DNA from: Polyangiales bacterium
GTDB lineage: Bacteria; Myxococcota_A; Polyangia; Polyangiales; Houyiibacteriaceae
Direction of reading: 5' to 3'
NCBI GenBank assembly: GCA_965227405.1
Contig: OZ245758.1
Span: forward strand, 3,188,338-3,252,337
DNA: 64,000 bases
The notes under the pieces were generated by a model. That model was not told where the DNA came from. It saw only the letters and a program-made list of their open reading frames with translations, and ran no database searches. Made by a program: the position numbers and the translations under genes. Shown here in pieces: positions 18,281 to 62,121 of this stretch; position 1 is the stretch's first letter; each line of letters begins with the position of its first letter.

Positions 18281-18394
18281 CACTCCCCACAGGCCGACAC
18301 CCTCGATTCGCAGAAGTTTCGGCGCGTGTTGCGAGGGAAGCTCCCACAACAATCGAACGTACGAGAGAGGTTTCTTCGCTATACCCTCGAGACG

Positions 18395-19213
18395 ATGCGA
18401 GAAGACCAAGCGAGCTTTACCGCACGGATCGTGGCGCTCGCGCGTGCACTGGCTTCCGATGCGTCAGGCCCACTCGACTCGACGGCGAGCACCATGTTGG
18501 ATGCACGCTGGCTCGACCGCGCACGGCCTCGAGGGTTGTCGCGCCGCGTCGTTTCGCTTCTCAGCGCCGGCGTGTTCGACCACGTTGCGCTGCGCACGCG
18601 ACGAATCGACGATGCTGTCTCCGAAGCCGGCTCGCCTCAGTTGGTGATCCTCGGCGCGGGGTTGGACGGTCGTGCATGGCGACTCGACTCGTTGAACGAC
18701 GCGGTCGTGTACGAGGTGGACCACCCTGCGACGCAACGGCTCAAGCGGAAGCGCTTGGGCACGATGGATCCCGTGGCTCGCGAGGTGCGCTTTGTGAGTG
18801 TCGACTTCGAGCGTGACTCGTTGTTGGAAGAGTTGATCCGTGCCGGCTTCGATCCTCAGCGCAAAGCCACGTGGATTTGGGAAGGCGTGACCATGTATCT
18901 CGAGCCCGAGACGGTGCGGGGCACACTGCGGATCTTGGGTGAGCTCAGCGCACCCGGCAGCACGTTGGTGGTGACCTACGCGACGCGTCAGTCGGTGATC
19001 TTCCGAGCCGGACTTGAGCGTGTGGTCGACCTGGCGTTCGGAGTGCTTGGTGAACCTCTTCCTGGTCTGACCACAAAGTCGGATTTTCAGGCGATGGTGC
19101 ATCGCGCCGGGTGGACGCCCATCCACGATGAGAACGACCGGGACATGCAACGTCGCTATCCCGAGTGGCGACCTGCGCCGTGGGAAGAGCGCGTGATGAT
19201 CGCGACCTGCTGA
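18395..19213 (+). CDS. Class I SAM-dependent methyltransferase (LCMT/TIGR00027 O-methyltransferase family)
   Basis: VILGAGLDGRAW glycine loop and the overall pattern of the leucine-carboxyl/Omt methyltransferase family. Start moved to the internal ATG (MREDQASF...). Confidence 0.6.
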   Translation: MREDQASFTARIVALARALASDASGPLDSTASTMLDARWLDRARPRGLSRRVVSLLSAGVFDHVALRTRRIDDAVSEAGSPQLVILGAGLDGRAWRLDSLNDAVVYEVDHPATQRLKRKRLGTMDPVAREVRFVSVDFERDSLLEELIRAGFDPQRKATWIWEGVTMYLEPETVRGTLRILGELSAPGSTLVVTYATRQSVIFRAGLERVVDLAFGVLGEPLPGLTTKSDFQAMVHRAGWTPIHDENDRDMQRRYPEWRPAPWEERVMIATC

Positions 19214-28925: not shown

Positions 28926-30512
28926 GTGGACTCTTCTAGGAGTGTCCCCGTGGCTCGTCGTTCCGTTGCTTTGATCGCTCTGCTGGCTTTCGCGTGCAGT
29001 GACAACACACCTTCTTCCGATGCACCCGCCGGTGAGTCGCGCCCGCGCTCCGAACCGGTCGAGTGGGTTGGCTTGACGGCAACCGTTCCGATCAACTCGG
29101 TCGACGACGCGCGCAACTTCCTCGAACCCTTCTTTGGTGATCGCGCGCGTGCCGGCGAAGGCATGAACGACGTCGAGATCCAACCCGGCGTGTTCGTCAC
29201 GACGATCGGCGATGCACGCACGCCGGAACAAGCCGTGGTTCAGATGGAGATGGCCACGATCGCCGACGCAGAGCGCCGCGTGATTCTCCAGGTCCCGGCA
29301 TCGTTTGCGTACGGTCGCATCTTCATCGACACCGCGTTGGTTGCGTTGACGCGTGCCGCCGCAGTTGAAGCCGAAGAGGCCGGACGCATGGAGCCCTTCT
29401 TGCTCGAGTACCGCAGCCAGAGCGTCAACGGTGGAGCACTGAGCTTGGCCGTGCGTTTCGAAAACGGGCAGAGCCGCATCGAACTGCGCACCAACACACC
29501 GCAAACCTCGCTCGAACCGGGCTTCGTCAACGCACCGGCCTTCACGGGCGAACCACACGAAGTGCTTGCGGGAACCGTCTGGTTTGAGCTCACGCGTGAC
29601 GAGTTCGATTTCTTCTCGACGCGTGCGTACGGAATCACGGCGGGTGCCGCTCAGAATTTCGAAGACTTCCGACTGCTTCCCCACGATTGGTTGCGTTTGA
29701 CGGTCACTCCGCGGCTCGACGACGAGTTGATCGACGTTGGGTTCGAGGTTGTCGGCCTCGATGGCTCGCGACTTCAACTCGCACGTGCTCCGGCGTCTTT
29801 GGTGGCCGGCGATCAGTTCCGAGAGAACGTGTTCCGAATGGTCACCAACATGAACGACCAGGAGCGCAACGAGCCTGGTTCGTCGACGCCGTGGCAGGTG
29901 CCCTTCCACTACGACGATCCCGAAGGTGGCGGTGTGGTGCGCGTGATCGCGCAGGGCGACTCGGGCATTTTCCGGATCGCGTACGCGGTCGAGTCGCCGC
30001 GCCAGCGCTTGCAGGATGTCGACTTCCTTCCTTACCAAGGGGTCGTCGACATTCCTGACGTGCTCGAGCCCCCTGACACCTCGTGCGAAGAAGTGGGTTC
30101 GACCGACGCGATCCGAGGTCGCTTCCGCGTTCGCTTCGATGCGTCGCCCACAGTTCGTGAGAGCGATTTGTTGACCGACCCCTTGCGCGGGAACGTGTGG
30201 GGTTCGGTGTTCCGCGCCGAAGACGTGACCCTCGCGGGTCCGATCGAAGGTGCGGTCGCCGTGGCGAATTTCGAGTTCGCGGATGTGGACGCGACCGTGC
30301 CGGGCGAAGGCATGGAGTACCTCATCGATACCGAGTTGCCTCGCGGTACGTACCAACTGCTCGGGTTCATGGACATTGACAACAACGGGACGGAGACGAC
30401 TGATCCCGACGAAGGCGATCCTGTGACGCTTCCCATTGGTGGTTTCGATCTCGAGTGCGCGGAGCAGCCGATCGTGGTCGAGTTCGCGCTTCTTCTTCCG
30501 CCTGGGCGGTGA
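28926..30512 (+). CDS. Lipoprotein, hypothetical (first gene of the di-heme peroxidase operon)
   Basis: GTG start and lipobox LLAFACSDN. 528 aa with no recognisable domain; its stop overlaps the next start (GTGA). Confidence 0.5.
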   Translation: MDSSRSVPVARRSVALIALLAFACSDNTPSSDAPAGESRPRSEPVEWVGLTATVPINSVDDARNFLEPFFGDRARAGEGMNDVEIQPGVFVTTIGDARTPEQAVVQMEMATIADAERRVILQVPASFAYGRIFIDTALVALTRAAAVEAEEAGRMEPFLLEYRSQSVNGGALSLAVRFENGQSRIELRTNTPQTSLEPGFVNAPAFTGEPHEVLAGTVWFELTRDEFDFFSTRAYGITAGAAQNFEDFRLLPHDWLRLTVTPRLDDELIDVGFEVVGLDGSRLQLARAPASLVAGDQFRENVFRMVTNMNDQERNEPGSSTPWQVPFHYDDPEGGGVVRVIAQGDSGIFRIAYAVESPRQRLQDVDFLPYQGVVDIPDVLEPPDTSCEEVGSTDAIRGRFRVRFDASPTVRESDLLTDPLRGNVWGSVFRAEDVTLAGPIEGAVAVANFEFADVDATVPGEGMEYLIDTELPRGTYQLLGFMDIDNNGTETTDPDEGDPVTLPIGGFDLECAEQPIVVEFALLLPPGR

Positions 30513-32203
30513 AACGCGGCTTGCTGCTGATGTGTCTCGTCGCCTGTGGAGATTCCGCAGGCGAAGACGTCTTTGCGTCATCCACAACCAGCATCGCGTT
30601 CGACGACGCCGGGATGCTCTGGGTGACGTCGCCCGATGATGACCGAGTTGTGGTGGTCGATCCGGACACGCTTGATGTGGTTCGAAGCGTTGACGTCCAA
30701 GGCCAACCACAACACCTCGCCATCGTGGGCGAACAGGTTTGGGTCACGCTTGGACTCACCAACGAGGTTGCACGCGTCGACACCAACGCACGCTTCGAGA
30801 TCCCTTGTGGAGGCTCACGCGCGATCGTGCGCTTGCCGAACGGCAACGTTTTGGTGAGTTGTCCGCACGACGACCGCCTGGTCGAACTCAATGGAGATGG
30901 TGTCGTTGCGCAGTACGACGCGCCGGGACGACCAACTGCACTCGCCGTATCCGACAACACGATCTACGTGACGAGCTCACTGGGCAGTATTCGCAGCGCC
31001 GACTATCCACCCACTCGTTGGGAAAGCGTGGAGCTGGAAGAGCGCGCCGGGTTTGCGGCCAGTCAGGTCGACGTGCTCGCCGCAGGAAGCCGAGGCGGTG
31101 TCGTCGCGGCGTACCAGCGGGTCGATCACGATAGCGATCGGGATCGTGATCCGGCGCGTGGTGGATATGGCTCGGTGGTCGACGGAAACCCACGAATCGA
31201 ACCGCGTTTGGTTGCCCCCTGCGGAGGTCGCTATGCCGAGTTTGACGGCGGTTCACGCGTCTTTAGCGGTCCCAGCGCAATCGCCTACGACCAAGAGCGA
31301 GACGCGCTTTGGGTGGTCAACCAATACACCGACGACGTCGCACAGATTCGTTGTTCGGGAGGCGGCGGACTTGCATCACCCTCGAGTCGACGTGCGGATG
31401 TCACCGCGTCCTTTCGTGTCGGGCGCGGTCCGCGCGGCATCGTGGTCCGTGACGGAGTCGCCTGGGTCGATGTTGGTTTTGACCATGCGGTGGCTCGCTT
31501 AGGCGACGAAACCGAGCTCACGCGTACTCGCGAGCTTGGACCCACGCGGATGAGCGATGCCGCGCTACGAGGTCGGAGTCTCTTTCACGACGCCGACGAC
31601 ATTCACCTCACGCCAAGCGGCGTGGTGACGTGCGCTACCTGTCACCCTGGCGGCGGCGAAGATGGGATCGTTTGGTTCCTGCACACGGAAGGCGTGGCGG
31701 CGAAAGTGCGTCGCACTCCACCGGCGTGGGGCGCTCGCGATGCGTTTACACCCTTTCACTGGGATGGCGAGTTCACCGACGCTCGCGATCTCACCTCGAC
31801 GACCATTCGAGAACTCATGGAAGGCGACGGTCTGCTCATCGACCTCGATGCCATGGCTGCGTACATGGCCGAAGTTGCACCGCCTCCTGCGCACGGAACG
31901 CACGTCGAGGGCGAAGCGGTGTTCATGCGCGCCGGCTGCAACGAGTGTCATCCTGGTGGTGGCTCCGACGGAGTTGCTCATGCTGTGATCGCCGATAGCG
32001 ACGATGCGTTGGCAAACCTACCTGGCGTCGACACACCACCGCTTCATGGCGTTCGAGCACGAGCGCCCTATTTGCACGACGGACGTGCGTTGACCTTGCG
32101 CGACGTGTTCGAAGTCCATAACCCCGAAGACCAGCACGGCCTTACTTCCGACCTCAGCGGGTCGGAACGCGAGGCGTTGATCGAGTACCTGAGGACCTTG
32201 TGA
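30509..32203 (+). CDS. Lipoprotein with an N-terminal beta-propeller and a C-terminal di-heme cytochrome c peroxidase/MauG-family domain
   Basis: GTG start (KRGLLLMCLVACGD lipobox). Two CxxCH motifs (CATCHPGG, CNECHPGG) and the APYLHDG motif of the CCP/MauG family; beta-propeller-like repeats in the N-terminal half. Confidence 0.65.
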   Translation: MKRGLLLMCLVACGDSAGEDVFASSTTSIAFDDAGMLWVTSPDDDRVVVVDPDTLDVVRSVDVQGQPQHLAIVGEQVWVTLGLTNEVARVDTNARFEIPCGGSRAIVRLPNGNVLVSCPHDDRLVELNGDGVVAQYDAPGRPTALAVSDNTIYVTSSLGSIRSADYPPTRWESVELEERAGFAASQVDVLAAGSRGGVVAAYQRVDHDSDRDRDPARGGYGSVVDGNPRIEPRLVAPCGGRYAEFDGGSRVFSGPSAIAYDQERDALWVVNQYTDDVAQIRCSGGGGLASPSSRRADVTASFRVGRGPRGIVVRDGVAWVDVGFDHAVARLGDETELTRTRELGPTRMSDAALRGRSLFHDADDIHLTPSGVVTCATCHPGGGEDGIVWFLHTEGVAAKVRRTPPAWGARDAFTPFHWDGEFTDARDLTSTTIRELMEGDGLLIDLDAMAAYMAEVAPPPAHGTHVEGEAVFMRAGCNECHPGGGSDGVAHAVIADSDDALANLPGVDTPPLHGVRARAPYLHDGRALTLRDVFEVHNPEDQHGLTSDLSGSEREALIEYLRTL

Positions 32204-33591
32204 TGCGAGTTCTGTTGATTGCTGTCTTGTTGGTGGGGTGTGGTGACGATTCCGCTCCCGTGGATTCGGGCACGGACACGTCGACGGATGTGGGACCCGA
32301 AGAAGACGCGGGAACCGATGCGACGATGGACGCGGGTTTCGATAGCGGCGTGACTCCGATCGATCCCACCGATTGCGTTCCGATCGATGCTGCCAATGCG
32401 GTGACCGCAGCCGACGGCGACGAAGTCTTTCAAGGAATGCTGCGTTTCCTGTGCGACACCTGGGACGTCGAGCAGCTTGATGAGTGGCCGCCCGCTGAGT
32501 TCATGCTTGCGCTGATGGATGACGAACCGGACGTGTTTGGAAACCAGTTCGAGTCGTTTGGGTTTATCGCGGATCCCAACGATGAGTTTCCGGTGGGATT
32601 CAAGCGTGGCGAGGCTGACCCGACGGGCGTTCATCACACCTGCGCTCTGTGTCACGTGGGTGAGCTTCCGGACGGCCGGGTTTGGCTTGGTGCACCAAAC
32701 TCTGAGTTGTTGTTCGGGGCGTTTCGAAATGCGGTCAACGAGCGTTGGGTAGCCGCCGGCAACGCATCGTTGGTTTCCGAACTCTCGGAGATGAAAGCAG
32801 AGGTGCTCGGACCGGGCCGGACGAACGCCGAAAGTGCGAGCTACCCCCAGGCCGTTCCCGCGGACTTCCCGCCGTATTGGAATATGGGCGAGCAGTCGCA
32901 CTTCAACTATCTCGGCACCGGTCGTGAAGCGCGGACTGAGATCTACTTCTCAATCTTCACGTTTGGCGCGGGCGACCCCAACGACGAAGAAGCGTTGGTT
33001 CCCTTCCCGCCCCCGCAGCGCACAACTCCTGTGGTGATGTTTTACGAGTTCCTGCAGCCGCCCGAAGGTCCCGCTGAAGATCCCGACCTGGTCGCCATGG
33101 GCGAAGCGCTGTTCACGCGGGAGCGATGCAACGAGTGCCACAATCCCGACAACCTCGCGGACAACGGAATCATCCCTTTCGACGAAGAGGGCGTGGAGCG
33201 CTTCCCGGGAGACGACGATGCGTTTCCCGAGGGCACGATCGCGACGAGCGCATTGCACCGAATCTTGATCGAAGAAGGCGGTGGGGACGGCGGTCGTGAC
33301 CGACTCATCCAGTTCATCGTGCGCAATCGACTCGCGGTAGGAACGAGTGACGGATATCGAACCTCACAGCTTGCTGGCGTTTGGGCGACCGCACCGTATC
33401 TACACAACGGTTCGGTTCCGACACTTGAGGACTTGCTTCGACCCGCAGACGAACGTCCTGTCACGTTCGAACGTCATGGTTTTACGGTGGACACCACCGT
33501 CGGAGGCAACTCCAATGAGGGCCATGAGTTTGGGACCGACATCACCGACGAAGAACGCACTGCGCTGGCAGCGTACTTGAGGACCCTGTGA
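32203..33591 (+). CDS. Lipoprotein, di-heme cytochrome c peroxidase/MauG-family paralog
   Basis: Lipobox LLVGCGDD, CALCH and CNECH heme motifs, APYLHNGSVPTLEDL, and a C-terminus ERTALAAYLRTL that mirrors the upstream gene's EREALIEYLRTL. Has a TGATG overlap with the upstream gene. Confidence 0.65.
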   Translation: MRVLLIAVLLVGCGDDSAPVDSGTDTSTDVGPEEDAGTDATMDAGFDSGVTPIDPTDCVPIDAANAVTAADGDEVFQGMLRFLCDTWDVEQLDEWPPAEFMLALMDDEPDVFGNQFESFGFIADPNDEFPVGFKRGEADPTGVHHTCALCHVGELPDGRVWLGAPNSELLFGAFRNAVNERWVAAGNASLVSELSEMKAEVLGPGRTNAESASYPQAVPADFPPYWNMGEQSHFNYLGTGREARTEIYFSIFTFGAGDPNDEEALVPFPPPQRTTPVVMFYEFLQPPEGPAEDPDLVAMGEALFTRERCNECHNPDNLADNGIIPFDEEGVERFPGDDDAFPEGTIATSALHRILIEEGGGDGGRDRLIQFIVRNRLAVGTSDGYRTSQLAGVWATAPYLHNGSVPTLEDLLRPADERPVTFERHGFTVDTTVGGNSNEGHEFGTDITDEERTALAAYLRTL

Positions 33592-34367
33592 CCAAGGTTG
33601 ATCAACACGCGAATCCGACGCGCGAAGAACCGCTGACTCCGGACGACACCAAAGCTCCTTCGCATGCCGAACGTGCACGCACGATGGTCTCGATGTTGCG
33701 CACCGGAACTCTATCGACGCTCAACGCAGATGGCTACCCGCACGGTTCGTACGTCACGTTTGCGCTGGACGGGCCCGATCCGGTGTTCCTTGTGAGCACG
33801 TTGGCATCACACACCAAAAATCTCATGGGGAGTGCGCGTGCTTCGTTGATGGCGCACGAGAGCCATGCGGATGATCCCTTAGCGAATGGTCGCGTTACCT
33901 TGGTAGGCGATTGCGCCAAACTCGAAGCGCCGACGACTGCGCGCGAAGCGTTTCTCGCCGCACATCCGCAAGCGGAGTACTACGTCGACTTCAAAGACTT
34001 CTCGTTTTGGAAGCTGACGGTGGCTTCGATCCGCTACATCGGAGGCTATGGGCGGATGAGCTGGGTCGATCTCGACGGTTGGCAGAGCGCCGAACCCGAT
34101 CCGATTGCACCGCACGTCGCGGGGATCATTGAGCACATGAACGACGACCATGCCGATGCGCTCGTCGCATACGCACATGCGTTCACGCGTGCGAAAGACA
34201 CCGATCAAGCCGTGATGACCGGGATCGATCGCTACGGCTTCGAGATGAGCGTGAAGACCGCCAAAGGCATGCGCCCAGCTCGGATTGCATTCGACGAAGA
34301 GATCGCGACGCCGACCGAAGCGCGGAAGGCGCTTGTGGCGTTGGTGAAGCGCGCGCGATCGGTTTGA
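33588..34367 (+). CDS. PNPOx-like split-barrel plus DUF2470 protein (HugZ-like heme-utilisation/oxygenase family)
   Basis: N-terminal MVSMLRTGTLSTLNADGYPHGSYVTFALD (FMN-binding split-barrel-like) and C-terminal IIEHMNDDHADAL (DUF2470 signature). ATGA overlap with the upstream gene. No signal peptide. Confidence 0.55.
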   Translation: MTKVDQHANPTREEPLTPDDTKAPSHAERARTMVSMLRTGTLSTLNADGYPHGSYVTFALDGPDPVFLVSTLASHTKNLMGSARASLMAHESHADDPLANGRVTLVGDCAKLEAPTTAREAFLAAHPQAEYYVDFKDFSFWKLTVASIRYIGGYGRMSWVDLDGWQSAEPDPIAPHVAGIIEHMNDDHADALVAYAHAFTRAKDTDQAVMTGIDRYGFEMSVKTAKGMRPARIAFDEEIATPTEARKALVALVKRARSV

Positions 34368-34386: not shown

Positions 34387-34995
34387 CTACTCGACTTCGG
34401 CGATACGCCACTCACCGGCTTCACGAATCAAGTGAATGACTCGGCCGTTCGATGCACGCACAAGCGCTTCGTTCCCCTCGACCTCGATGTCGTAGTCAAG
34501 TTCGTCTTCGGTATCGTCGAGAAAGCGCTCGACCTCAGCTTCGAGCTGCGCACGTGGAGCACGCGACAACACCCTCAACACACCGGACATGCTTCGTCGC
34601 TGCAACGCATGTCGCATGGCACGAATCGCGTCTTCCGGAGTTTGGAGAGCCGGCGCGTCCAAGACGCCGCCGAGAATCTTCCACTCTCCATCTTCCAACG
34701 TGAGCACTGCGATCTCACCCGACGGAAGCCGAACGGTGGCGCGACTCTCCACACCGGCAAGCTGTTGTTGCGCGATCTCGGCGCGCTCGTTGAGCTCTTG
34801 TTGGTTTTCTTGAAGCAAGCGCGCCACATCGTCGGTCGCGACGGACTCACGCGACTCTTCGTCGAGAAGCGCGTGCACCGCTTCTGCATCCTGCGCTTGA
34901 ACCGCTCGCGCGTACGCTTCCACGGTGGGGCCCGGTCCTTCGATCACCGCAGCCGAAGCACACCCTGCCAACATCGCGAGCCAGATCACCCTCAT
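34387..34995 (-). CDS. Lipoprotein, hypothetical
   Basis: Start at the internal ATG giving MRVIWLAMLAGCAS (lipobox). Helical, Glu/Gln-rich. Confidence 0.45.
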   Translation of the reverse strand: MRVIWLAMLAGCASAAVIEGPGPTVEAYARAVQAQDAEAVHALLDEESRESVATDDVARLLQENQQELNERAEIAQQQLAGVESRATVRLPSGEIAVLTLEDGEWKILGGVLDAPALQTPEDAIRAMRHALQRRSMSGVLRVLSRAPRAQLEAEVERFLDDTEDELDYDIEVEGNEALVRASNGRVIHLIREAGEWRIAEVE

Positions 34996-35216
34996 CGGTT
35001 CGCGGACTCTATCGTGCCAACCCGCTCCATCTGCGCGTTTTTCGGGCGTGAACCCAAGTTCACGCGCGCGCCCGAGGTGCACGCTGGTTAACCCTCAACC
35101 TCCTGCACTCGCAGGGGAAAACTAGGGGTTTTCAAGCTTGATCCCCCCATGCAGCCTCAAAATGGCGCTGGCACGGATCGTGGATAACCTTTGGGCAAGA
35201 CCGAGGAAAATCATCG

Positions 35217-36197
35217 ATGCGTTTGGCTCTCACATCTCTCTTTGCATGCGCGCTTATGGCGCTTTCGGGTTGTTGTTCCGACAGCTACTTCTGCGACGAC
35301 ACCGGTTGCTTCTATTGCGATGGCCTGGGTTGTCGTGAAGTCGATCCGCCGGAGCGTCCGACCTGTCGTGGCGATTTCGAGTGCCCCGAAGGAACGATGT
35401 GCACCGACGTGGGTTGCGTCGAAGAGTGCTCGGAAGACTCGGACTGCCCGGATGGCACTGTCTGCCGTGACGCGATGTGTGTCGGCCCGACCGAGCCCGA
35501 TCCCGATCCGCGCCCCGGCACCTGCACGATGAACTCCGATTGCGGCGACGCGAGCCTCGTTTGCCGGGACGGAATGTGTGTTCCCAACGATGTCTCCTGC
35601 GGCGAGCTCGGTTGCAGCTGCGCAGATACCGGAATGTGCTCGGATGGATTTACCTGCCTTGATGGTGAGTGCCGCGCCGACGAAGACGTCTGCCAGTTCA
35701 ACTTCGAGTGCGGTGCCGGCAAGCTTTGTGTCGATGGACGCTGCACCACCGAGTGTGGTCCCGATGCGGGTCCGTGCCCCGAGGGTCAGCAGTGCGACGC
35801 TGGTTTCTGTCGCGACATCCCGCCGACTCCCGGCGAGTGCACGCGCGACGCCGAATGCACCATGGGCCACATCTGTGTCGACAGCAGCTGTGTAGACGGC
35901 TGTGAGCTTGACTCCGATTGCGGCGAAGGACGCTACTGCGCATACGGACGCTGTAAGGTCGACGACCGTCCCACCGACTTCTGTACCAGCGATGCTGACT
36001 GTCGCTTCATCTGTGTCGACGGGGTGTGCCGCACGCCGTGTGACACGAGCGAAGAGTGCGCACGAGTCGACGTTCAGTTCAGCGTGTGTCTCTCGCCCGA
36101 GGCCTACTGCGGAACCACCAACGAAGCCACGAGCGATTGCGCCATCTCGGCCGATTGCGGAAGTGGCGAGGAATGTATCGACGGCATCTGTCGTTGA
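35217..36197 (+). CDS. Cys-rich repeat lipoprotein (Myxococcus-type C-x-D-x-C-x-x-G-x-C repeats)
   Basis: Lipobox ALSGCCSD and at least 10 tandem approximately 25-aa repeats of the form CxxDxDCPxGxxCxDGxC. Confidence 0.65.
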   Translation: MRLALTSLFACALMALSGCCSDSYFCDDTGCFYCDGLGCREVDPPERPTCRGDFECPEGTMCTDVGCVEECSEDSDCPDGTVCRDAMCVGPTEPDPDPRPGTCTMNSDCGDASLVCRDGMCVPNDVSCGELGCSCADTGMCSDGFTCLDGECRADEDVCQFNFECGAGKLCVDGRCTTECGPDAGPCPEGQQCDAGFCRDIPPTPGECTRDAECTMGHICVDSSCVDGCELDSDCGEGRYCAYGRCKVDDRPTDFCTSDADCRFICVDGVCRTPCDTSEECARVDVQFSVCLSPEAYCGTTNEATSDCAISADCGSGEECIDGICR

Positions 36198-36246
36198 AGA
36201 GTCGGATCGGAACCAACCGACTCCATCCACCACCCATCCCACCCTG

Positions 36247-36290
36247 TCTGGGGGTACGGCAGCAGCCGTGCCCCCAGGCTCTTTTAAGCA
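36247..36290 (+). terminator. Rho-independent terminator after the Cys-rich repeat gene
   Basis: ctgggggtacggc-agca-gccgtgcccccag (13-bp stem with 1 mismatch) followed by gctctttta. Confidence 0.55.
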
Positions 36291-36350: not shown

Positions 36351-38228
36351 ATGCGTGTTTGGCTTGGGGTTGCGCTCGCCCTTGCGGTGGCGTGTGGGGA
36401 TGATGACGGTTCGACGGACGCGGGTACCGATTCAGGTGGGTCGGACAGCGGGATGCTGGACGCCACCAGCGACGTTGGAGGCGACGACGCAGGCGATCCC
36501 GACGCAGGCGATCCCGACGCGGGCGATGCAGGTTGTCCCGACGATGACGGCGACGGCGTCTGCAACGATGAAGATCAGTGCATCAACGGTGACGATGCTG
36601 CGGACGCGGACGGTGATGGCGTTGCCGATGCCTGCGACGCGTGTCTTGGGAGCGATGACGCCATGGACGACGATGGCGACACGGTTCCCGATGGCTGTGA
36701 TTGCGACACCAGCGCGGACATGTGCGATGCCAACGCAACCTGTGCGGAGGCGATGACAGGTGTAGAGTGCACTTGCAACGACGGATACATGGGCGACGGT
36801 GCGACGTGTGATCCAGTCGACTGCGGCATGTTGGATCCGCCCGACGACGGTAGCGTCGACGCGGCAGTGACCACGTTCGAGTCGGAGGCAACGTACTCAT
36901 GCGACACGGGATTCACGCTGGCTGGCGAACCCACCCGCACATGCCAGGCAGATGGAACGTGGTCTGGCGATGCGCCGATTTGTTCGTCGATCGATTGCGG
37001 CGCCTTGACTCCTCCGGCTGACGGAATGGTGGACGTGCCATCGACAGGGTTCAGCTCCGTCGCCACCTACACTTGCAACGACGGCTACGTGTTGATGGGC
37101 GATACAACGCGTACCTGTCAGAACGACTCGATGTGGAGTGGTGCCGAGCCCACCTGCATGTTCGTGGACTGCGGTTCCTTGCCACCATTGCCTGAAGGCA
37201 TGGTCACCACCGATCGAACTTCGTTTGGCGGAACGGCGACGTACACGTGCAATCCCGGGTTTACGTTGACTGGCGCACCCACTCGAACGTGTCGTGCAGG
37301 GGGTAGTTGGAGCGGCAGTGCACCGACTTGCGATCCGGTCGACTGCGGTGCACTCACGCCACCCGCGAACGGCGACGTGGTCGCACCGACAACGACGCTG
37401 GGATCGATCGCGAGCTACTTCTGCGACGCCGGATTCATGATGTCGGGCGGGACCGCATCCAGGACCTGCCAAACCGACGGGACGTGGGATGGGACGCCGC
37501 CGATGTGTGTCCCAGAGATCATTGACTGTGGAGCACCCCCTTCGCCGACGAACGGCAGCGTGAGTGCGCCGGACACGACCGCGGGTAACTTTGCGACGTA
37601 CAGTTGCAACTCGGGCTTCCGTCAGTTCACGGGCGAGTATGCGATTTGCCAAGCAGACGGAACGTGGCTTGGTCGTGCACCGGAGTGCTTGCCGCTGCTG
37701 ACGTGCGCGTGTGACCAGTTCGCCGAAGATGAGCGCGTGCAAGCGGCAGTTGCCATGCCGGGCGGGGCTGCGGGCGTCACACAGGGTCAACTCGGAACCG
37801 TGATCGCCGCCAGCACGACGCGTGACCTCATTCAATGGGACGGTTGGACGGGCGGCCACGACGGCAACTGTTCGTTCGCTTCCTGTGGAACGTGCATGGA
37901 CCTGCCCGTCGACCAAGGTCGTTGGTACACCACGTGTGGAGACATCGGTGAATACCGGCTCACGTGTTCATGCGGTGGTATTTGGTATCCCGGAGATCGC
38001 GTCGTCGCTCTCGTCGACAATCCGCGCGGTGCGACTGGCATTCTTCGCGGACGACAGGGGACCGTCGTCGCCGGTGGCGGCGCTTCGGGTGGAACAGACA
38101 TCCTGATCCAATGGGACGCATGGTCCGATGGGCATGACGGGAACTGTTCGTTCTCCGATTGCGGCACGTGTGTCGATAGCGGTGATAGTCGCTGGTACAC
38201 GGATTGCGACGAAATCGGACGTCCGTAA
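36351..38228 (+). CDS. Lipoprotein with TSP3-like Asp repeats, an EGF-like module, five tandem Sushi/CCP (SCR) domains and two copies of a novel approximately 85-aa Cys-containing C-terminal repeat
   Basis: Lipobox LAVACGDDDG. EGF-like CDANATCAEAMTGVECTCNDGYMGDGATC. Five repeats of DCGxLxPPxxGxV...ATYxCxxGFxLxGxxTRTCQxDGTWSGxAPxC (Cys1-4 spacing, GF/GY, W..P.C of Sushi domains). C-terminal repeat LGTVIAASTTRDLIQWDGWTGGHDGNCSF.SCGTC...RWYT.C occurs twice. Confidence 0.7.
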   Translation: MRVWLGVALALAVACGDDDGSTDAGTDSGGSDSGMLDATSDVGGDDAGDPDAGDPDAGDAGCPDDDGDGVCNDEDQCINGDDAADADGDGVADACDACLGSDDAMDDDGDTVPDGCDCDTSADMCDANATCAEAMTGVECTCNDGYMGDGATCDPVDCGMLDPPDDGSVDAAVTTFESEATYSCDTGFTLAGEPTRTCQADGTWSGDAPICSSIDCGALTPPADGMVDVPSTGFSSVATYTCNDGYVLMGDTTRTCQNDSMWSGAEPTCMFVDCGSLPPLPEGMVTTDRTSFGGTATYTCNPGFTLTGAPTRTCRAGGSWSGSAPTCDPVDCGALTPPANGDVVAPTTTLGSIASYFCDAGFMMSGGTASRTCQTDGTWDGTPPMCVPEIIDCGAPPSPTNGSVSAPDTTAGNFATYSCNSGFRQFTGEYAICQADGTWLGRAPECLPLLTCACDQFAEDERVQAAVAMPGGAAGVTQGQLGTVIAASTTRDLIQWDGWTGGHDGNCSFASCGTCMDLPVDQGRWYTTCGDIGEYRLTCSCGGIWYPGDRVVALVDNPRGATGILRGRQGTVVAGGGASGGTDILIQWDAWSDGHDGNCSFSDCGTCVDSGDSRWYTDCDEIGRP

Positions 38229-38299: not shown

Positions 38300-39160
38300 A
38301 TGCGAGGATTGGTGGCCTTCGCGATGTGCGGTTTTGTGGGCTGCACACTTCCGGCGGAAGACGTCGACGGACGCACCGAAGCGCTGCGTAACCTCGACGC
38401 CGTTGAAACCGAGTTCCTCGGTTTACTCAATGAGCACCGCGCAGGTGACGGGCTGATGCCGGTGTTCGATGAACGCGCCTGCAACACCGCGGCACGCGAC
38501 TACAGCCAACTCATGGGCGAGATGAACTGGTTTGACCACACCGGTCCCGATGGTTCGTCGCCGTGGGATCGCATGTGTGATGCTGGCTACAACCCTGCCT
38601 GTGGTCCGAGTACTGCGGTCGGTGAGAACATCGCCGCCGGCAACGGAAGCGCAGCGGCCACGTTCGAACAGTGGCGCACCAGCCCGGGTCACAACCGCAA
38701 CATGCTGGACAGTCGATACCGCGTTGTGGGTATTGGTCGCGCAGAGGTTCCGGGATCGCGTTATCGCTTTTACTGGACCAACGTGTTTGGTGGACAGATC
38801 ACCGACGAGACCAACATGGGTGGACCGATGCCGGATCCCGACGCGGGTCCGCCGCCTGATCCCGATGCCGGTCCGCCGCCTACCGACGCCGGTCCCGGAC
38901 CCCAACCCGATGCGGGTCCAGGCAACGACGCAGGTCCGCCTCCGCCCGATCCGGATGCAGGGCCAGGGTTTGATGGTGGACCGGGCTTTGACGCTGGACC
39001 GCCTCGAATGGACGCGGGTCCTGGAAACGATTCGGGTACTGCCATGCCGCCTGCGGCAAGCAGCGACACCTATCTTGTCGGCGACTGTGCAGCGGGTGGA
39101 TCCGGTGCAGGCGCGGCTTGGGTGATGCTTGCGTTGCTCTGCATTCGTCGCCGACGCTAG
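38300..39160 (+). CDS. CAP/SCP/PR-1-like domain lipoprotein with a Pro-rich linker and MYXO-CTERM sorting signal
   Basis: Lipobox FVGCTLPAE. CAP motifs (GENIAAGNGSAAATFEQWRTSPGHNRNML...VGIG). A (DAGPPP)n linker. C-terminus GDCAAGGSGAGAAWVMLALLCIRRRR. Confidence 0.65.
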   Translation: MRGLVAFAMCGFVGCTLPAEDVDGRTEALRNLDAVETEFLGLLNEHRAGDGLMPVFDERACNTAARDYSQLMGEMNWFDHTGPDGSSPWDRMCDAGYNPACGPSTAVGENIAAGNGSAAATFEQWRTSPGHNRNMLDSRYRVVGIGRAEVPGSRYRFYWTNVFGGQITDETNMGGPMPDPDAGPPPDPDAGPPPTDAGPGPQPDAGPGNDAGPPPPDPDAGPGFDGGPGFDAGPPRMDAGPGNDSGTAMPPAASSDTYLVGDCAAGGSGAGAAWVMLALLCIRRRR

Positions 39161-39172
39161 CGGCGTCGCACC

Positions 39173-40057
39173 ATGGACTGGAAGCGAACGAGCCTGCTCG
39201 CGTGGGCATTCGTGTGCGGTGCCGCGAGCGCGCACGCGGATGACACAGACGTTGCACCGGACGCGGCGCCCGATGTCGCACCCGACGGACCCAAAGGATA
39301 CGCGTGGGCGGAGTCGGCTGTATTTGTGGAGCAGAATCGCGGGCCGCGCATCACTGCGATCAGTCCGCTGATCGGTGCTGAGTATTGGATCGCACATGCA
39401 GTCGAAGTGCGCGCGCGTTTCGGTTGGACGGGCGTACGGCTTGCGGAATCGGAGTTCACCGATCGTCGTTGGCGGTGGAGCAACTTGGAACTCGGTGCGT
39501 CGTTTCGACGCGAGATCCCGACGTACTACCCCTACGTGTTTGAGCTTGCTGTGGGGTTGAACGTGGAGATCCCAACCTCGGTTGCACGCAGAGACACGAC
39601 CATGGCCGGCGATCTCGCCGACGAGACGGTGCTTCGCTCGGCGTCGGTGATGCGCGGTCGACGTGACCCTTGGTTGTGGGCGCCCGAGACGTTGAGCATC
39701 GTCGTTCCGCTGAGTGCCCAGCTCGTGCACGACTACGCGCACGTGAAACTCGCCGGTGATCTTGGTTTTCTGTTTGCGCTGGATGACCCCGATTCGACTG
39801 TGGCGATTCAGGTCCTGGGCGAAGCCGGGTACTGGGTGCAGCGCAAGCTCTTGCTCGCTCTCGCACTTTCGGTCGTGACGACTGCAGGCAACGCCCTCGA
39901 GGGTGCGTCAGCCTCGGGTGCGTTTCGCGCAATCGCCAAGCTCGAACCGGTGCGATTCCATTTCGACGTGTGGTTGAACTTGGACGATCCCTTGGGCTTT
40001 ACACTTGTCGGTAGTCGTTGGGGGGTTGTTCTTGGGATCGGCGTCGCGTTGCCATGA
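39173..40057 (+). CDS. Secreted hypothetical protein (possible outer-membrane beta-barrel-like)
   Basis: Signal peptide MDWKRTSLLAWAFVCGAASAHA with alternating hydrophobic beta-strand-like segments. No recognisable domain. Confidence 0.45.
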   Translation: MDWKRTSLLAWAFVCGAASAHADDTDVAPDAAPDVAPDGPKGYAWAESAVFVEQNRGPRITAISPLIGAEYWIAHAVEVRARFGWTGVRLAESEFTDRRWRWSNLELGASFRREIPTYYPYVFELAVGLNVEIPTSVARRDTTMAGDLADETVLRSASVMRGRRDPWLWAPETLSIVVPLSAQLVHDYAHVKLAGDLGFLFALDDPDSTVAIQVLGEAGYWVQRKLLLALALSVVTTAGNALEGASASGAFRAIAKLEPVRFHFDVWLNLDDPLGFTLVGSRWGVVLGIGVALP

Positions 40058-40121: not shown

Positions 40122-41432
40122 ATGGGAGCGAAAACCGCGGCGCAGCGACTTGGCCAGCGCATGCGAGCAGGAGAGTCGATCGGGTTTCGTGCGGCCTTTG
40201 GGAGCGACGACTCGTTCTACGAGCTGCATGTGTTCGGTGAACTGAGCGACGGCCGCCCAAGCGTGAACCTGCGTGTGATGTGGTGCGGAGAGCGCGCCAT
40301 CGATGCTGTGCTCGCCGGAACGGCGAAGGCGCCGCAGGGCGCGTTTCCGAAGGTGTACCAAAGCAACCATCCATCGTTTGGTTTGGCGTTGAAGCGCTTC
40401 GCCAAGAGTGTTCGAAGCGGGGATTTGCCTGCGATCACCAAACTCGAGCCTCGCTTCGGCAGCATCGCGCTCCTTCGGGGCAGTGAAGAACTTCTGTCGG
40501 AAGTGCTGCTCGCGTTTGCAGAGACGTTTGAATCCGCAGTGCCTGCGGATCTGGATGCGCGACGGAGCGCATGGAAAGAGATCGTGCACAACGCGAACCA
40601 AGCGCTCGTGTTGGCCGGCAAGAAGCTCGAGGAAGCCCGCAACCCTTCGCCGGAGACCCAAGGCCAGCGTGAGTGGGATCGCATCGCGTCTCCAGAAGGG
40701 GATCGGATTCGCATTGCGCACGACGACCCAGACATCCCTCCGGACTTAGAACTCTTGGTGAAGAGCAAGAGTTACCAGGCGCTCGAATCTGTTTGGGTGA
40801 CGAGGTGGGTGTCGCACGAACACGACAGCGACTTTCGGCCTTGGTTCGAATGTTTGACGACGTATCCACCCAAGCAGCTTCGAGCAGTCGAAGTGGGAAC
40901 GTACTCGGGTCGCTACGACAAGCTTGGACCCGTTGCGCCGATGGTGGGTGCAAACCCCAGTTTGCGTTCGCTCTTTCTGACTGGCGTGATGGACAGCGTG
41001 GCTCCGTTTGGAAACGAGAGTCTTGAGTCGTTTCAGGTCCAAACCGGCAAGTGGAGCGCCACGCCCATGAAACGTTTCATTGATTGGACGAAGTTCGATC
41101 ATCTGCACACGTTCATCGCGACCGGTGAAGTCTGCGATGCGCGCGGTCTGACGCGTCTGTGGAAGCTCCCCGCGCTGCAGACCCTGGAGCTTTCGCTGTT
41201 CGAACTGCACCCAGAGTTCTTCGCGCTGTCTCAAGACACCCGGATTCGAGAAGCGGACTTGGGAAGTTGCCGTTGGCCGATCGAGCCAGACGCGGAGAAT
41301 GCGATCATCGAAGCCGTGGTGTCGGCTGCGCCCTACCTTCAACAGGTGTCGCTCATCCTTCCTGTGGATGCTCAAGACGCAGCCGAACGTTTCGAGGCCG
41401 CAGGCCTTTCTTGCGAGTATGGGAGCTACTGA
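40122..41432 (+). CDS. Cytoplasmic hypothetical protein, paralog A (possible LRR-like C-terminus)
   Basis: 436 aa with no signal peptide. About 40% identical in the N-terminal 180 aa to the next gene (MxxKTAAQRLGxRxRxGESIxxRxAFG...FGSIxLLxGSxxLLxEVxLAFAExFE). Confidence 0.5.
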   Translation: MGAKTAAQRLGQRMRAGESIGFRAAFGSDDSFYELHVFGELSDGRPSVNLRVMWCGERAIDAVLAGTAKAPQGAFPKVYQSNHPSFGLALKRFAKSVRSGDLPAITKLEPRFGSIALLRGSEELLSEVLLAFAETFESAVPADLDARRSAWKEIVHNANQALVLAGKKLEEARNPSPETQGQREWDRIASPEGDRIRIAHDDPDIPPDLELLVKSKSYQALESVWVTRWVSHEHDSDFRPWFECLTTYPPKQLRAVEVGTYSGRYDKLGPVAPMVGANPSLRSLFLTGVMDSVAPFGNESLESFQVQTGKWSATPMKRFIDWTKFDHLHTFIATGEVCDARGLTRLWKLPALQTLELSLFELHPEFFALSQDTRIREADLGSCRWPIEPDAENAIIEAVVSAAPYLQQVSLILPVDAQDAAERFEAAGLSCEYGSY

Positions 41433-42856
41433 TGTCCAAAACCGCAGCACAACGATTGGGCAAGCGGGTTCGTGGAGGCGAGAGCATCGCGTTGCGAGGT
41501 GCATTCGGCGATGAGACTTCGTTCTACGAACTCGAGGTGGCTGCTGCGACAGGCAACCCGCGTCCGGACGTGCATCTGCTCGTGCGTTGGTGCGGAACTC
41601 AAGTGTTGAAAGGCATGACCGAAGGAACCACGGACGCACTGCGCCAAGCTGCGGCACAGAAAGCGTTTCCGGTGGTGTACCGGAGCCAACACAAGTCGTT
41701 TGGTCAGGCTCTAAAGCGCTACGCCAAGTGCGTTGGCAACGGCGATCTGCCGGAAGTCTCCGCGTTGGAACCTCAGTTCGGCAGCATCGAGTTGCTTGAG
41801 GGCAGCGACGATCTGTTGGAGGAAGTGGTGCTGGCGTTCGCGGAAATCTTTGAAGCGGAGGCGCCCGGTGATCTCGAGACGCTTCGTGCGGCGTGGTCCA
41901 AGACCCGAACGAGTGTCTTTGCCACCGTCGAACCTGCGTTGGACAAAGCGCGTGCCGATGCCGTGGCGGCGGCAGAGCAAGCGGATCGGGAGCGTGCCCA
42001 AGCAGCAGCGCGGAATCTCGAACAACAGCTGATCAAGCGGCAAGGCGTGCACATGTCTATCGACACAAGCAAGACGCCGTATCGCGATGGTCCGAAGATC
42101 GACGAAGCCGCAATGTTCGCGAAACACGCCGATGCAGAGAAGCTCTTGCTGATGGGCGACGCGTTGGGATCGTGGATGTATCACTTGGAGGAGGCAAAGC
42201 CGAAAGCGCTCACCGCACTGATCATCGATACGTATTGGCAGACCATTACGCGTACGGCCGCTGTGCCGCTTGGCAGCGTTTGCTCGTTGATCAACGCATG
42301 TCCAAACCTCGCGTCCGCGTTCATGATCGGAGACTTCGTCGTCTCTCAGTCGATTACCAGTCAGTCGCTCGAATCGCTGACCCTTCTGGCGGACCCCTTC
42401 GATCCCAAGTCGGCACGCAGGATCTTGGAGAGTCCGGCGCCCGTGCTGCGGCAACTCACTCTCGGGCTTCGGTACGAGTACGGATCGAAAGCGGATGCCG
42501 ACATTGCGTCGGCCATCAACGACAAGGCGTTGCCATCACTCCAAGAGTTGACGATTGCCAACGCGGACGACCCTGTTCCGATTTTTCGGCAGGTGATGTC
42601 ATCTGGGCTGCTCGCGCGACTTGAGGTGCTGCATTTCATTCTCGAAGATGAAGAGCACATTGATGCATGTGCCGAGATCGTGTTCACGAATCCCGAAGCG
42701 TTTGCTCACCTTCGCGAACTCGGACTCGAGAGCGAGAACATGTCGGCGTCGCCAGAGGTGCTCGAGCAACTGCAGAAGCACGTTCCTGGCTACACGTTTT
42801 GCGGCAATCCGTTTGCGCCCACCGCGTACAATCGAACCGCGTTCGTGCCTGACTAA
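41432..42856 (+). CDS. Cytoplasmic hypothetical protein, paralog B
   Basis: ATG overlaps the upstream TGA (TGATG). Same N-terminal family as 40122..41432, with leucine-rich C-terminal repeats. Confidence 0.5.
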   Translation: MSKTAAQRLGKRVRGGESIALRGAFGDETSFYELEVAAATGNPRPDVHLLVRWCGTQVLKGMTEGTTDALRQAAAQKAFPVVYRSQHKSFGQALKRYAKCVGNGDLPEVSALEPQFGSIELLEGSDDLLEEVVLAFAEIFEAEAPGDLETLRAAWSKTRTSVFATVEPALDKARADAVAAAEQADRERAQAAARNLEQQLIKRQGVHMSIDTSKTPYRDGPKIDEAAMFAKHADAEKLLLMGDALGSWMYHLEEAKPKALTALIIDTYWQTITRTAAVPLGSVCSLINACPNLASAFMIGDFVVSQSITSQSLESLTLLADPFDPKSARRILESPAPVLRQLTLGLRYEYGSKADADIASAINDKALPSLQELTIANADDPVPIFRQVMSSGLLARLEVLHFILEDEEHIDACAEIVFTNPEAFAHLRELGLESENMSASPEVLEQLQKHVPGYTFCGNPFAPTAYNRTAFVPD

Positions 42857-60552: not shown

Positions 60553-62121
60553 ATGGACCGAGAACTCGCAAAACTCGTCAAAGAAGGAGATGCCGCCGGA
60601 ATCGCTGTGCATCTCGACGGGCTTCCCAAACGCCCACCCATTCACGATTTGTTGTGGTGCGCCTACTTTGCGAACGAGGCGTGCCAGAAGCTTCTGCTTG
60701 AGGTGGCCACCAAAAAGAAGATCACGCTGCCAAAGAAGAAGAATGCGTGGAAGTGGAACGACGCCCATGCCGCGGCACTCAGTGGCGACCCTGCTGCGAT
60801 TGCAAAAGCGGAGAAACGCGGTGCAGATTTTGAAGCCCTTACGCCATTCGGAACCCCGCTGACGATAGCGATTCGGCTCAAGCACTCGGACTTCGTGCGT
60901 GCGCTCTTGGACACGGGCGTCGACACGACGGCCAAGGTCAAGATGGCGCGTATTGGCGGTGTACGCGTCTTCGGCGGAAACATGTTCATGACCGATGCAA
61001 CACCGTTGGGAGTTGCGTTACGTGTCGCGGACGAAGCCACCACCGCAGTTCTTCTCGAGCACATCAAAGTCGAGCCTGATCACTTGGGTGACGCGGTGCA
61101 GGGCGCGAACGAGACCTTGTTGCGCCGAGTGCTCTCAGATCTGGGCGACGCTGCACCGCTCGAACCGAAGTTGTTCTGGAGCGTGCATGACCCGGCGATC
61201 CTTCCTGTCCTGAAGGAGCACGGGTTCGACCTTTCAAACTTGCCCACAGATACAGGGACCTGGGGCGGATCGGTCTGGTCGTGGTGGGGCTATTATCTCA
61301 AGGGCGGAGAGTCGCGCATCGAGTGTTTCAAGGCTCTGTTTGCCACGGGAGTCAAAGGGACAGCCGCAGGCTTGGGCGATGTGATCAAGGCGAACATTCA
61401 AGGGATTGCGTCCATCGAGATGATCGATCTCTTTCTCGACAATGGTGTCGATCTCTCCGACGAGATGGAGTGGAAGACGGAGGGTTGGGACGACGAGAAC
61501 GACTGCGAGATGAAGGCGCGAGGCTCACTCGCGGAGCGAATGCTAAAAAAGCACACGCTCGAGTTAGTTCAGCACGTCCACAGCAAGGGCGCAGAAATTC
61601 GTCCCACGCGTCCGGATCCAACCTGGCGAGACGCCGACGAAAAGAAGGAATGGTTGGAGAGCCTTGGGCTGATCAAGGAGCTCGATGCTTCGGCGTTTCC
61701 GTTCCTCGACTCGCCAAGCAACGATGAAGTGAAGAAGTTCCTGGCCACGGAAGGCGGGATCTACGGACTCAAGCTCGGCATGAGTCGCGACGCGACCAAG
61801 GGTTGGGATCTCGACGGCGGCGTGATTTCGGTCGACTTCGAGAAGGGCAAGATCGTCTACGTGTACCGTCAGTACTACGAGCCACCGAATGGAACGTTCG
61901 ATGCAATGCAAGAGGCGCTCGTGGCTGTGCATGGCGAACCCAAGAAGAAGGGCAAGAAGCTTGCCTGGGCGGTGCCCGGCGGCTGGATCTCGCTTCGTAA
62001 AGACTTCAACGATGCGGGGCTCACGGTGAGCGTCGACATGCAGTCCGATGAGCCGCCGGAAGACGACTACGACGACGACTACGACGACGACTACGACGAA
62101 GACTACGAAGACGACTACTAA
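60553..62121 (+). CDS. Ankyrin-repeat-like protein with a poly-acidic (DDYDDDY)n tail
   Basis: ANK-like helical repeats (TPLTIAIRLKHSDFVRALLDTGVDTT; ATPLGVALRVADEATTAVLLEH). C-terminus DDYDDDYDDDYDEDYEDDY. Lys-rich and apparently lower GC. Confidence 0.45.
   Translation: MDRELAKLVKEGDAAGIAVHLDGLPKRPPIHDLLWCAYFANEACQKLLLEVATKKKITLPKKKNAWKWNDAHAAALSGDPAAIAKAEKRGADFEALTPFGTPLTIAIRLKHSDFVRALLDTGVDTTAKVKMARIGGVRVFGGNMFMTDATPLGVALRVADEATTAVLLEHIKVEPDHLGDAVQGANETLLRRVLSDLGDAAPLEPKLFWSVHDPAILPVLKEHGFDLSNLPTDTGTWGGSVWSWWGYYLKGGESRIECFKALFATGVKGTAAGLGDVIKANIQGIASIEMIDLFLDNGVDLSDEMEWKTEGWDDENDCEMKARGSLAERMLKKHTLELVQHVHSKGAEIRPTRPDPTWRDADEKKEWLESLGLIKELDASAFPFLDSPSNDEVKKFLATEGGIYGLKLGMSRDATKGWDLDGGVISVDFEKGKIVYVYRQYYEPPNGTFDAMQEALVAVHGEPKKKGKKLAWAVPGGWISLRKDFNDAGLTVSVDMQSDEPPEDDYDDDYDDDYDEDYEDDY

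Follow-up and report, generated by a model that had tools for sequence, protein, structure and literature searches.

A candidate lipid-anchored adhesin with an EGF-Sushi stalk and paired Cys-braced SH3-like domains from uncultured myxobacteria

Introduction

Tandem complement control protein (CCP, or Sushi) modules are best known from animals, where they build complement regulators and other multi-CCP proteins such as CR1, CR2, factor H, DAF, MCP and the CSMD/SVEP1-like proteins of sponges. Arrays of these modules form semi-rigid rods, and in complement regulators they are the C3b/C4b-binding units. Selectins carry an EGF module directly before such an array, with a C-type lectin head in front and a C-terminal anchor behind. 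Here we describe a gene for a protein with five tandem Sushi modules (the Sushi gene, 36351..38228, + strand) from a Polyangiales bacterium of the Myxococcota (assembly GCA_965227405.1, contig OZ245758.1, positions 3,188,338 to 3,252,337); the 64,000 nucleotides that were analysed are referred to as the window, and all coordinates are those of the window.

The product has tandem CCP modules, the four-Cys-plus-Trp pattern and linkers of 4-6 residues in common with the animal proteins, but it is bacterial, carries a predicted lipid anchor at its N-terminus where theirs is a C-terminal transmembrane segment or GPI, and ends in SH3-like domains; nothing in it points to complement or to a host. Like selectins it has an EGF module immediately before the CCP array, and we propose that here, too, a rigid stalk presents a binding head. 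Its polarity is inverted, however, and a pair of SH3-like domains stands in for the lectin. Among myxobacterial proteins, Myxococcus TraA carries a variable PA14-like head on a Cys-rich TIGR04201 stalk with a MYXO-CTERM anchor. With TraA and the Cys-rich MYXO-CTERM surface proteins the Sushi protein would share the plan of a disulfide-rich stalk with a terminal recognition domain, and genes next to it encode Cys-rich repeats and a MYXO-CTERM-like tail; unlike TraA it has a Sushi/EGF stalk, an SH3-like head and a putative N-terminal lipid anchor. Our literature search found nothing on bacterial Sushi lipoproteins or on DUF4314. An initial annotation of the stretch had placed the protein in a cluster of eukaryote-like adhesion and mimicry modules. 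Its observation was confirmed by the present analysis, and its interpretation is partly supported.

Results

Architecture and Sushi modules

The open reading frame starts with ATG and encodes 625 residues. Lipobox, acidic flexible linker, Asp/Cys segment, EGF module, five CCP modules and two predicted SH3-like barrels follow one another in this order:

36351..36395, + strand: signal peptide and lipobox (MRVWLGVALALAVA/C), Cys15 being the putative lipid-attachment residue; read from the sequence
36396..36533, + strand: acidic low-complexity linker of Asp, Gly, Ala and Pro, residues 16-61; from composition
36534..36701, + strand: Asp/Cys-rich segment, residues 62-117, three DxDxDGxxDxCDxC motifs; from a motif scan
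36702..36809, + strand: EGF module, residues 118-153, six Cys; Pfam EGF_3
36822..36983, + strand: Sushi/CCP module 1, residues 158-211; Pfam Sushi, four Cys and Trp, PDB matches to CR1, CR2 and factor H
36996..37157, + strand: Sushi/CCP module 2, residues 216-269; Pfam, PDB and Cys/Trp pattern
37170..37331, + strand: Sushi/CCP module 3, residues 274-327; top-scoring Sushi stretch, covering profile positions 1-56 of 56
37344..37508, + strand: Sushi/CCP module 4, residues 332-386; Pfam, PDB and Cys/Trp pattern, overlapped by an HRM match
37527..37688, + strand: Sushi/CCP module 5, residues 393-446; Pfam, PDB and Cys/Trp pattern
37698..37958, + strand: C-terminal copy A, residues 450-536, predicted Cys-braced SH3-like barrel; family profile match and similarity to copy B
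37959..38225, + strand: C-terminal copy B, residues 537-625, predicted Cys-braced SH3-like barrel at the distal end

The five tandem Sushi modules of the initial annotation were confirmed by a highly significant match to Pfam PF00084 (E=1e-53, 180 bits against a gathering cut-off of 20.7) that falls into five separate stretches, and the same model was found in 18/18 orthologues. All five modules span 54-55 residues from Cys1 to Cys4, spaced as C-x(25)-C-x(13-14)-C-x(12)-C; a Trp stands five residues after Cys3 and hence before Cys4. Pairwise identities among the modules are 40-56%. When the protein was compared with PDB sequences by phmmer, CR1 (9e-148), CR2 (5e-85) and factor H (3e-56) were found, as well as DAF and MCP, and the EGF and CCP stretch together aligned to E-selectin (4c16, E=4e-16). 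From homology to these solved CCP proteins we infer a CCP beta-sandwich fold for the Sushi modules. A Pfam match to HRM at residues 346-393 overlaps Sushi 4 and is presumably a Sushi-like fold scored twice by a related model. Catalytic and C-type lectin domains were absent from the 625 residues in the Pfam scan, and the C-terminus is not a transmembrane segment.

The best eukaryotic matches to the array were multi-Sushi proteins of sponges (Ephydatia, Geodia, Halichondria and Amphimedon), and single modules reached 50-62% identity to sponge modules (Halichondria, Geodia, Ephydatia). Identities of 55-65% were found to modules of metagenomic proteins with typically bacterial partner domains, and dozens of such non-orthologous Sushi proteins stood among the top matches, so that these domains are less rare in bacterial metagenomes than the initial annotation implied. 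At the level of single-module identity, bacterial and animal Sushi modules are thus not cleanly separated. The identity across kingdoms alone would be no sign of recent transfer or mimicry, because the matches were picked as the top ones from billions of sequences, such short modules deviate little from the consensus, and the gene itself seems native. The possibility that the gene came recently from an animal by horizontal transfer was considered and rejected in view of the native G+C content, the deeply diverged collinear orthologues and the bacterial modules, which are at least as similar as those of sponges.

The C-terminal twin domain

Copies A and B are 49% identical (E=6e-23), in agreement with the duplication noted initially. 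Neither copy matched any Pfam model at E<=10, including DUF4314, DUF4926 and SH3_12, in the 2025 copy of Pfam-A. A word-indexed search with the C-terminal region led to two homologues only, both with a Sushi module just upstream. The near-orphan status that this suggested was rejected as an artefact of the word index on the strength of full-length and exhaustive profile searches: hmmsearch with a six-copy profile against 1.84 billion representative sequences found 233 clusters at E<=1e-3, of which 125 also passed E<=1e-10, and the family therefore comprises at least 233 clusters. These are spread over several phyla, with Phycisphaerales as frequent carriers, and contain 1-6 copies of the domain per protein at variable positions. 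The domain (hereafter head domain) was found in signal-peptide-bearing proteins, and its partners in 85 other members were S8, trypsin and C1 peptidases, beta-helix, fn3, CARDB, PMP repeats, dockerin, TSP1 and Sushi; the combination of Sushi and head domain thus also occurs outside the orthologue group. Source names of family proteins were 'hypothetical', 'C1 family peptidase' (Thiodictyon) and 'subtilisin family serine protease'. In other secreted proteins, then, the head domain behaves like a mobile accessory module. A role of the twin domain as a C-terminal sorting signal was also considered and rejected, since other members of the family carry it at N-terminal and internal sites too.

The domain is about 88 residues long and has a CxC arm at its N-terminus, 4-6 Cys that are conserved and a loop that reads W-D-x-W-x-x-G-H-x-G-N, the conserved positions being C3, C5, G12, R14, V15, P22, G31, G34-T-V, L49, W52-D53, W55, G58-H59, G61, C68, W80 and C84. 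By their Cys the copies fell into three groups, one with a four-Cys core at 3, 5, 68 and 84 (20 copies), one that includes the window copies and has a further, co-varying pair at 63 and 71 (phi 0.91; 93 copies), and one with an extra pair at 38 and 66 (60 copies). Six Cys are present in 183/230 copies, and together with the co-varying pairs this suggests a disulfide-bonded module of extracellular character.

An AlphaFold2 model built from a 6-sequence alignment was discarded (predicted local distance difference test, pLDDT, 52), and an alignment of 123 sequences gave a five-stranded model (pLDDT 95.2; predicted template modelling score, pTM, 0.87) with an SH3-like small-barrel fold, in which the conserved loop lies between strands 3 and 4. 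The best full-length Foldseek matches were CAP-Gly domains (template modelling score, TM, 0.6-0.7; E about 0.02), and nothing was found at E<=0.001 in PDB or the viral fold library, the latter giving weak matches to small uncharacterised phage proteins, some of them annotated as DUF4314. The Pfam CAP_GLY model matched 0/123 family copies, and the GKNDG loop of CAP-Gly reads G-H-x-G-N here. When the 123 copies were searched in isolation, DUF4314 was found in 11, SH3_12 (the Xrn1 SH3-like domain) in 6 and DUF4926 in 4, all weakly (best E 4e-5); SH3_12 also matched 5/18 orthologues at E>=2.7e-4, and the head-domain profile found only noise among PDB sequences (best E=0.087). The likeness to DUF4314, DUF4926, SH3_12, CAP-Gly and CPH is therefore one of fold or weak profile score. 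Its relatives by structure that bear a name are Xrn1, Spt5, dynactin, HERC2 and phage proteins; the present domain occurs in secreted proteins with protease, beta-helix, fn3 and dockerin modules. On the model and these comparisons the head is a distinct, uncurated, Cys-braced branch of the SH3-like barrels, that is, a new family with a known fold. Of the novelty claimed in the initial annotation the family stands, with no Pfam model to describe it, but neither the fold nor an orphan status does.

Anchor, linker, Asp/Cys segment and EGF module

The lipobox LAVA|C was checked in the alignment of the orthologues, where 18/18 sequences have M1, Cys15 and, at position -1, either Ala or Gly. As judged by this signature the protein is a bacterial lipoprotein, as had been annotated. 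The linker that follows is the least conserved of all segments, with a mean identity of 39% to the orthologues and many insertions and deletions.

The motifs of the Asp/Cys segment begin at residues 66, 87 and 108. The segment is 61% conserved among orthologues, one subgroup of which lacks one motif. Alone it matched no Pfam family at E<=10, and TSP_3 (PF02412) matched 0/18 orthologues at E<=1. A comparison with PDB led only to the type-3 repeats of thrombospondin-2 and COMP, in register, at E=0.09-0.3 and with strong composition bias. The earlier term 'TSP3-like' thus seems fair as a description of the three motifs, but membership of the thrombospondin type-3 family is not demonstrated by these scores. 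The segment is possibly a calcium binder, in view of its motifs. The EGF-like module was corroborated by EGF_3 (PF12947; residues 118-153, 34.2 bits against a cut-off of 28.5), with Cys at 118, 125, 131, 140, 142 and 153, and is present in 18/18 orthologues.

Orthologues, constraint and lineage

Full-length homologues are 50-97% identical to the Sushi protein. In an alignment of 18 sequences not only M1 and Cys15 but also every Cys of the EGF, Sushi and head modules and the module order are kept; Sushi 3 is missing from a single orthologue, and additional Sushi modules are present in one relative. The folded modules are alike in conservation (49-64%), with head copy A lowest among them at 49%. 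The ratio of non-synonymous to synonymous substitution rates (dN/dS) was about 0.08 (0.016/0.208) against the 97%-identical relative (L023) and about 0.13 (0.213/1.68, with dS saturated) against a 71%-identical orthologue (L001). The Sushi gene is under purifying selection.

When one-genome-per-species reference genomes were scanned with the orthologue alignment, 18 loci were found, all in metagenome-assembled genomes (MAGs) and none in a cultured organism; the same scan with the single Sushi protein found nothing. The MAGs are labelled Sandaracinus, Sandaracinaceae, Polyangiaceae, Myxococcales, Myxococcota or 'Deltaproteobacteria' only, and their records are titled as environmental isolates and bins, none of which names a host. 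The G+C content is 62.5% in the 2-kb bin that covers most of the gene, compared to 58-66% across the window. Given its deep divergence with kept architecture, its native G+C and its carriers confined to Myxococcota, the gene is old and has been passed on vertically in a Sandaracinaceae-type lineage that is uncultured.

Comparison with the 97%-identical relative (L023:6001-7875) led to an uneven distribution of differences. Identity is 99.8% in the upstream flank and 97.2% in the downstream one, codons 1-157 are identical, and 52/89 codons of head copy B differ (39 synonymous and 13 non-synonymous or indel, all 13 within residues 563-612). This indicates a recombination mosaic with a breakpoint inside the Sushi gene. 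As synonymous changes dominate in copy B, the mosaic is not evidence of positive selection.

Gene neighbourhood

The Sushi gene is flanked by the following features:

34387..35082, - strand: divergent small lipoprotein gene without Pfam family; the true start is likely the internal MRVIWLAMLAGC, near 34995
35217..36197, + strand: upstream Cys-rich gene for a 326-residue lipoprotein with 53 Cys and DUF7107 repeats; Pfam E=1e-13, 51.9 bits against 24.6
36246..36279, + strand: terminator-like hairpin with a 15-bp stem of which 11 pairs are G-C, then TCTTTT; 49 nt after the stop of the Cys-rich gene
38300..39160, + strand: downstream CAP/YkwD-type lipoprotein gene with a Pro/Asp/Gly-rich linker and a MYXO-CTERM-like tail; PF00188 E=4e-18, 66.9 bits against 21.1

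The upstream neighbour had been called a Myxococcus-type Cys-rich repeat lipoprotein. Its Cys-rich, lipoprotein character with DUF7107 repeats was found, but TIGR04201 (Myxo_Cys_RPT) scored 21.5 bits, below the cut-off of 25. The hairpin between this gene and the Sushi gene folds as RNA with -33.3 kcal/mol (z=-5.67), which 0/200 shuffles equalled, and is a plausible intrinsic terminator. A pattern scan of the 71-nt spacer before the CAP gene found no terminator-like site. The CAP domain assigned initially to the downstream neighbour was recovered, whereas its tail, GDCAAGGSGAGAAWVMLALLCIRRRR (Cys, Gly-rich stretch, hydrophobic stretch, RRRR), resembles MYXO-CTERM when judged by eye and had a weak profile score (23.8 bits against a cut-off of 500 for the MYXO-CTERM-anchored NCBIfam family MXAN_5453). 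Since NCBIfam models that describe bacterial proteins, YkwD (4e-20) and also DalA, match the CAP protein, it is not eukaryote-specific, contrary to its earlier listing among eukaryote-like modules.

Beside the 71%-identical orthologue the Cys-rich, divergent lipoprotein and CAP genes all adjoin (CAP 79% identical), and the 97%-identical relative has a CAP gene at the corresponding place. Beside the Sandaracinus orthologue (L003), which is 55% identical, the Cys-rich gene (67%) and the small lipoprotein gene (45%, E=6e-53) keep their positions, and a rhodanese gene takes the place of the CAP gene. Synteny of the CAP gene holds only in close relatives. With the CAP gene not syntenic in the distant orthologue and the terminator-like hairpin upstream of the Sushi gene, the proposed cluster of eukaryote-like modules was not upheld.

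Several further observations were made in the window. A 343-residue antisense reading frame (35211..36242, - strand) shadows the Cys-rich gene, and on the Logan contig L023:4827-5996 the gene caller took the antisense strand (389 residues, no Pfam) over the DUF7107 gene of the + strand. As the + strand has Pfam support and 67%-identical orthologues, the antisense call is likely a mis-annotation in high-GC DNA. The CAP gene is followed, 12 nt on, by a reading frame of 294 residues (39173..40057, + strand) whose N-terminus resembles a signal peptide and which falls into no Pfam or NCBIfam family; the contig of the 97%-identical relative contains this frame, and it is absent beside the 71%-identical orthologue. 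Two tandem genes without Pfam family (40122..41432 and 41159..42856, both + strand) have the N-terminal 'KTAAQRLGxRxRxGESIxxRxAFG...SFYEL' in common and appear to be paralogues, the second with a probable start at an internal MSKTAAQRLG directly past the stop of the first. Overlapping RoxA-like/di-haem cytochrome c peroxidase-like genes (30455..32203 and 32200..33591, both + strand) are followed by a CREG/PNPOx-like gene (33588..34367), an arrangement repeated in L023. A gene for 522 residues (60553..62121, + strand) weakly matches Ank_2 (23.8 bits, below the cut-off of 27.3).

Two adjacent, overlapping genes on the - strand (9003..13478 and 13475..18409; 1491 and 1644 residues) encode alpha-2-macroglobulin (A2M)-family proteins with MG2, MG4, A2M and Big_1 domains. 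Both products have signal-peptide-like N-termini and no CxEQ thioester motif, and thus resemble the bacterial A2M type without a thioester. That a CCP protein is encoded in the same window is probably coincidental.

Discussion

The Sushi protein may best be read as a lipid-anchored adhesin or recognition protein made of anchor, stalk and head, a reading that we favour with moderate confidence. Cleavage by signal peptidase II would be followed by lipidation of Cys15, holding the N-terminus in the membrane, and Gly at position +2 would, by analogy with lipoprotein sorting in Myxococcus, probably direct the protein to the outer membrane or cell surface. The acidic flexible linker and the short Asp/Cys segment, perhaps with bound calcium, would serve as a spacer. 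EGF and five CCP modules would then form a disulfide-stabilised rod of about 20 nm, at 3.5-4 nm per CCP as in complement regulators, and the two tandem SH3-like barrels at its distal end would most likely be the ligand-binding part, the conserved loop being involved. Cell-wall peptides or glycans are frequent targets of SH3-type domains in bacteria, and here the ligand could be a peptide or glycan that belongs to another cell, to prey or to the extracellular matrix. A role in adhesion or recognition is suggested because the protein has no catalytic domain. Lipidation, surface exposure, rod geometry and ligand binding by the head are what we infer from this architecture. Several points weigh against the proposal. 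All carriers are uncultured MAGs; SH3-like barrels serve such diverse functions that having the fold is no proof of binding; a structural role could also account for the W-D-x-W-x-x-G-H-x-G-N motif; and since the stalk modules are as conserved as the heads, the Sushi modules may themselves be binding surfaces, as in complement regulators, and not a passive spacer.

A more specific idea is that of a cell-cell recognition receptor for kin or partner cells, with the distal SH3-like head as a specificity determinant that is swapped between strains by recombination. The mosaic described above would fit such a function, with identical codons up to 157, more than half of the copy B codons changed and a breakpoint inside the gene between unequally diverged flanks, as would the low conservation of head copy A and the syntenic Cys-rich repeat lipoprotein with its weak TIGR04201 match. 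The 39 synonymous against 13 non-synonymous codons, however, point to import of a diverged allele under purifying rather than diversifying selection, the downstream flank is also more divergent so that the tract is not confined to the head, the comparison is one of a single strain pair, and homotypic binding is not known for the SH3-like fold. Such a receptor, which would be analogous to TraA with its variable head, is possible but doubtful. Equally tentative is the picture of an 'inverted selectin' whose strain-swapped specificity head serves strain-specific recognition of cells or prey in uncultured Sandaracinaceae; if it were true, the head domain of about 88 residues, with its at least 233 clusters, would add a new class to the extracellular modules that recognise ligands. 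The protein might instead be no lone adhesin but part of a structural or matrix-organising assembly in the envelope, in which the Cys-rich DUF7107 lipoprotein and the product of the divergent lipoprotein gene, 206-231 residues long, would be its partners. The three genes keep their relative positions and orientations down to 55% identity, where the partners are 67% and 45% identical. Yet a strong terminator-like hairpin separates the Cys-rich and Sushi genes, the third gene is on the opposite strand, and synteny over such a phylogenetic range can persist without functional coupling, which makes the complex rather unlikely.

The initial annotation had also suggested mimicry. On such a view the Sushi modules of an effector or adhesin would imitate animal complement-control or selectin proteins toward a eukaryotic host, for example a sponge. 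Animals are indeed the best-known source of Sushi, EGF and TSP3-like modules, the PDB relatives are complement regulators, and the identity to sponge modules is considerable (50-62%). The modules are equally or more similar (55-65%) to those of metagenomic Sushi proteins with bacterial partner domains, however, and orthologues down to 50% identity within Myxococcota keep the architecture and position-specific module features, as expected for an old, vertical gene. The G+C content is native (62.5% against 58-66%), the record titles of the carriers are environmental and name no host, and the gene neighbourhoods in the window and around the orthologues contain no secretion-system or host-interaction genes. 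Host mimicry is thus improbable. Finally, by analogy to CCP proteins acting on C3b/C4b, the Sushi protein could be imagined as a regulator or partner of the two adjacent MG2/MG4/A2M proteins encoded 18-27 kb upstream in the same window (9003..18409, - strand). With about 18 kb and unrelated genes between them, the opposite strand, no A2M-family gene within 6 kb of the orthologues and neither A2M-like protein having a CxEQ thioester motif, this is hardly credible.

Conclusions

The analysis defines a bacterial extracellular domain family that is absent from the 2025 copy of Pfam-A, with about 88 residues, a four-Cys core, the W-D-x-W-x-x-G-H motif and a predicted SH3-like fold. It also reveals that an uncultured myxobacterial lineage keeps, under purifying selection, a putative surface protein with a stalk of modules more familiar from the complement regulators and selectins of animals. 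The gene therefore offers a clean bacterial case for asking what role CCP stalks have outside animals and, because single modules are up to 62% identical to those of sponges, it bears on the movement of Sushi modules between bacteria and early-branching animals.

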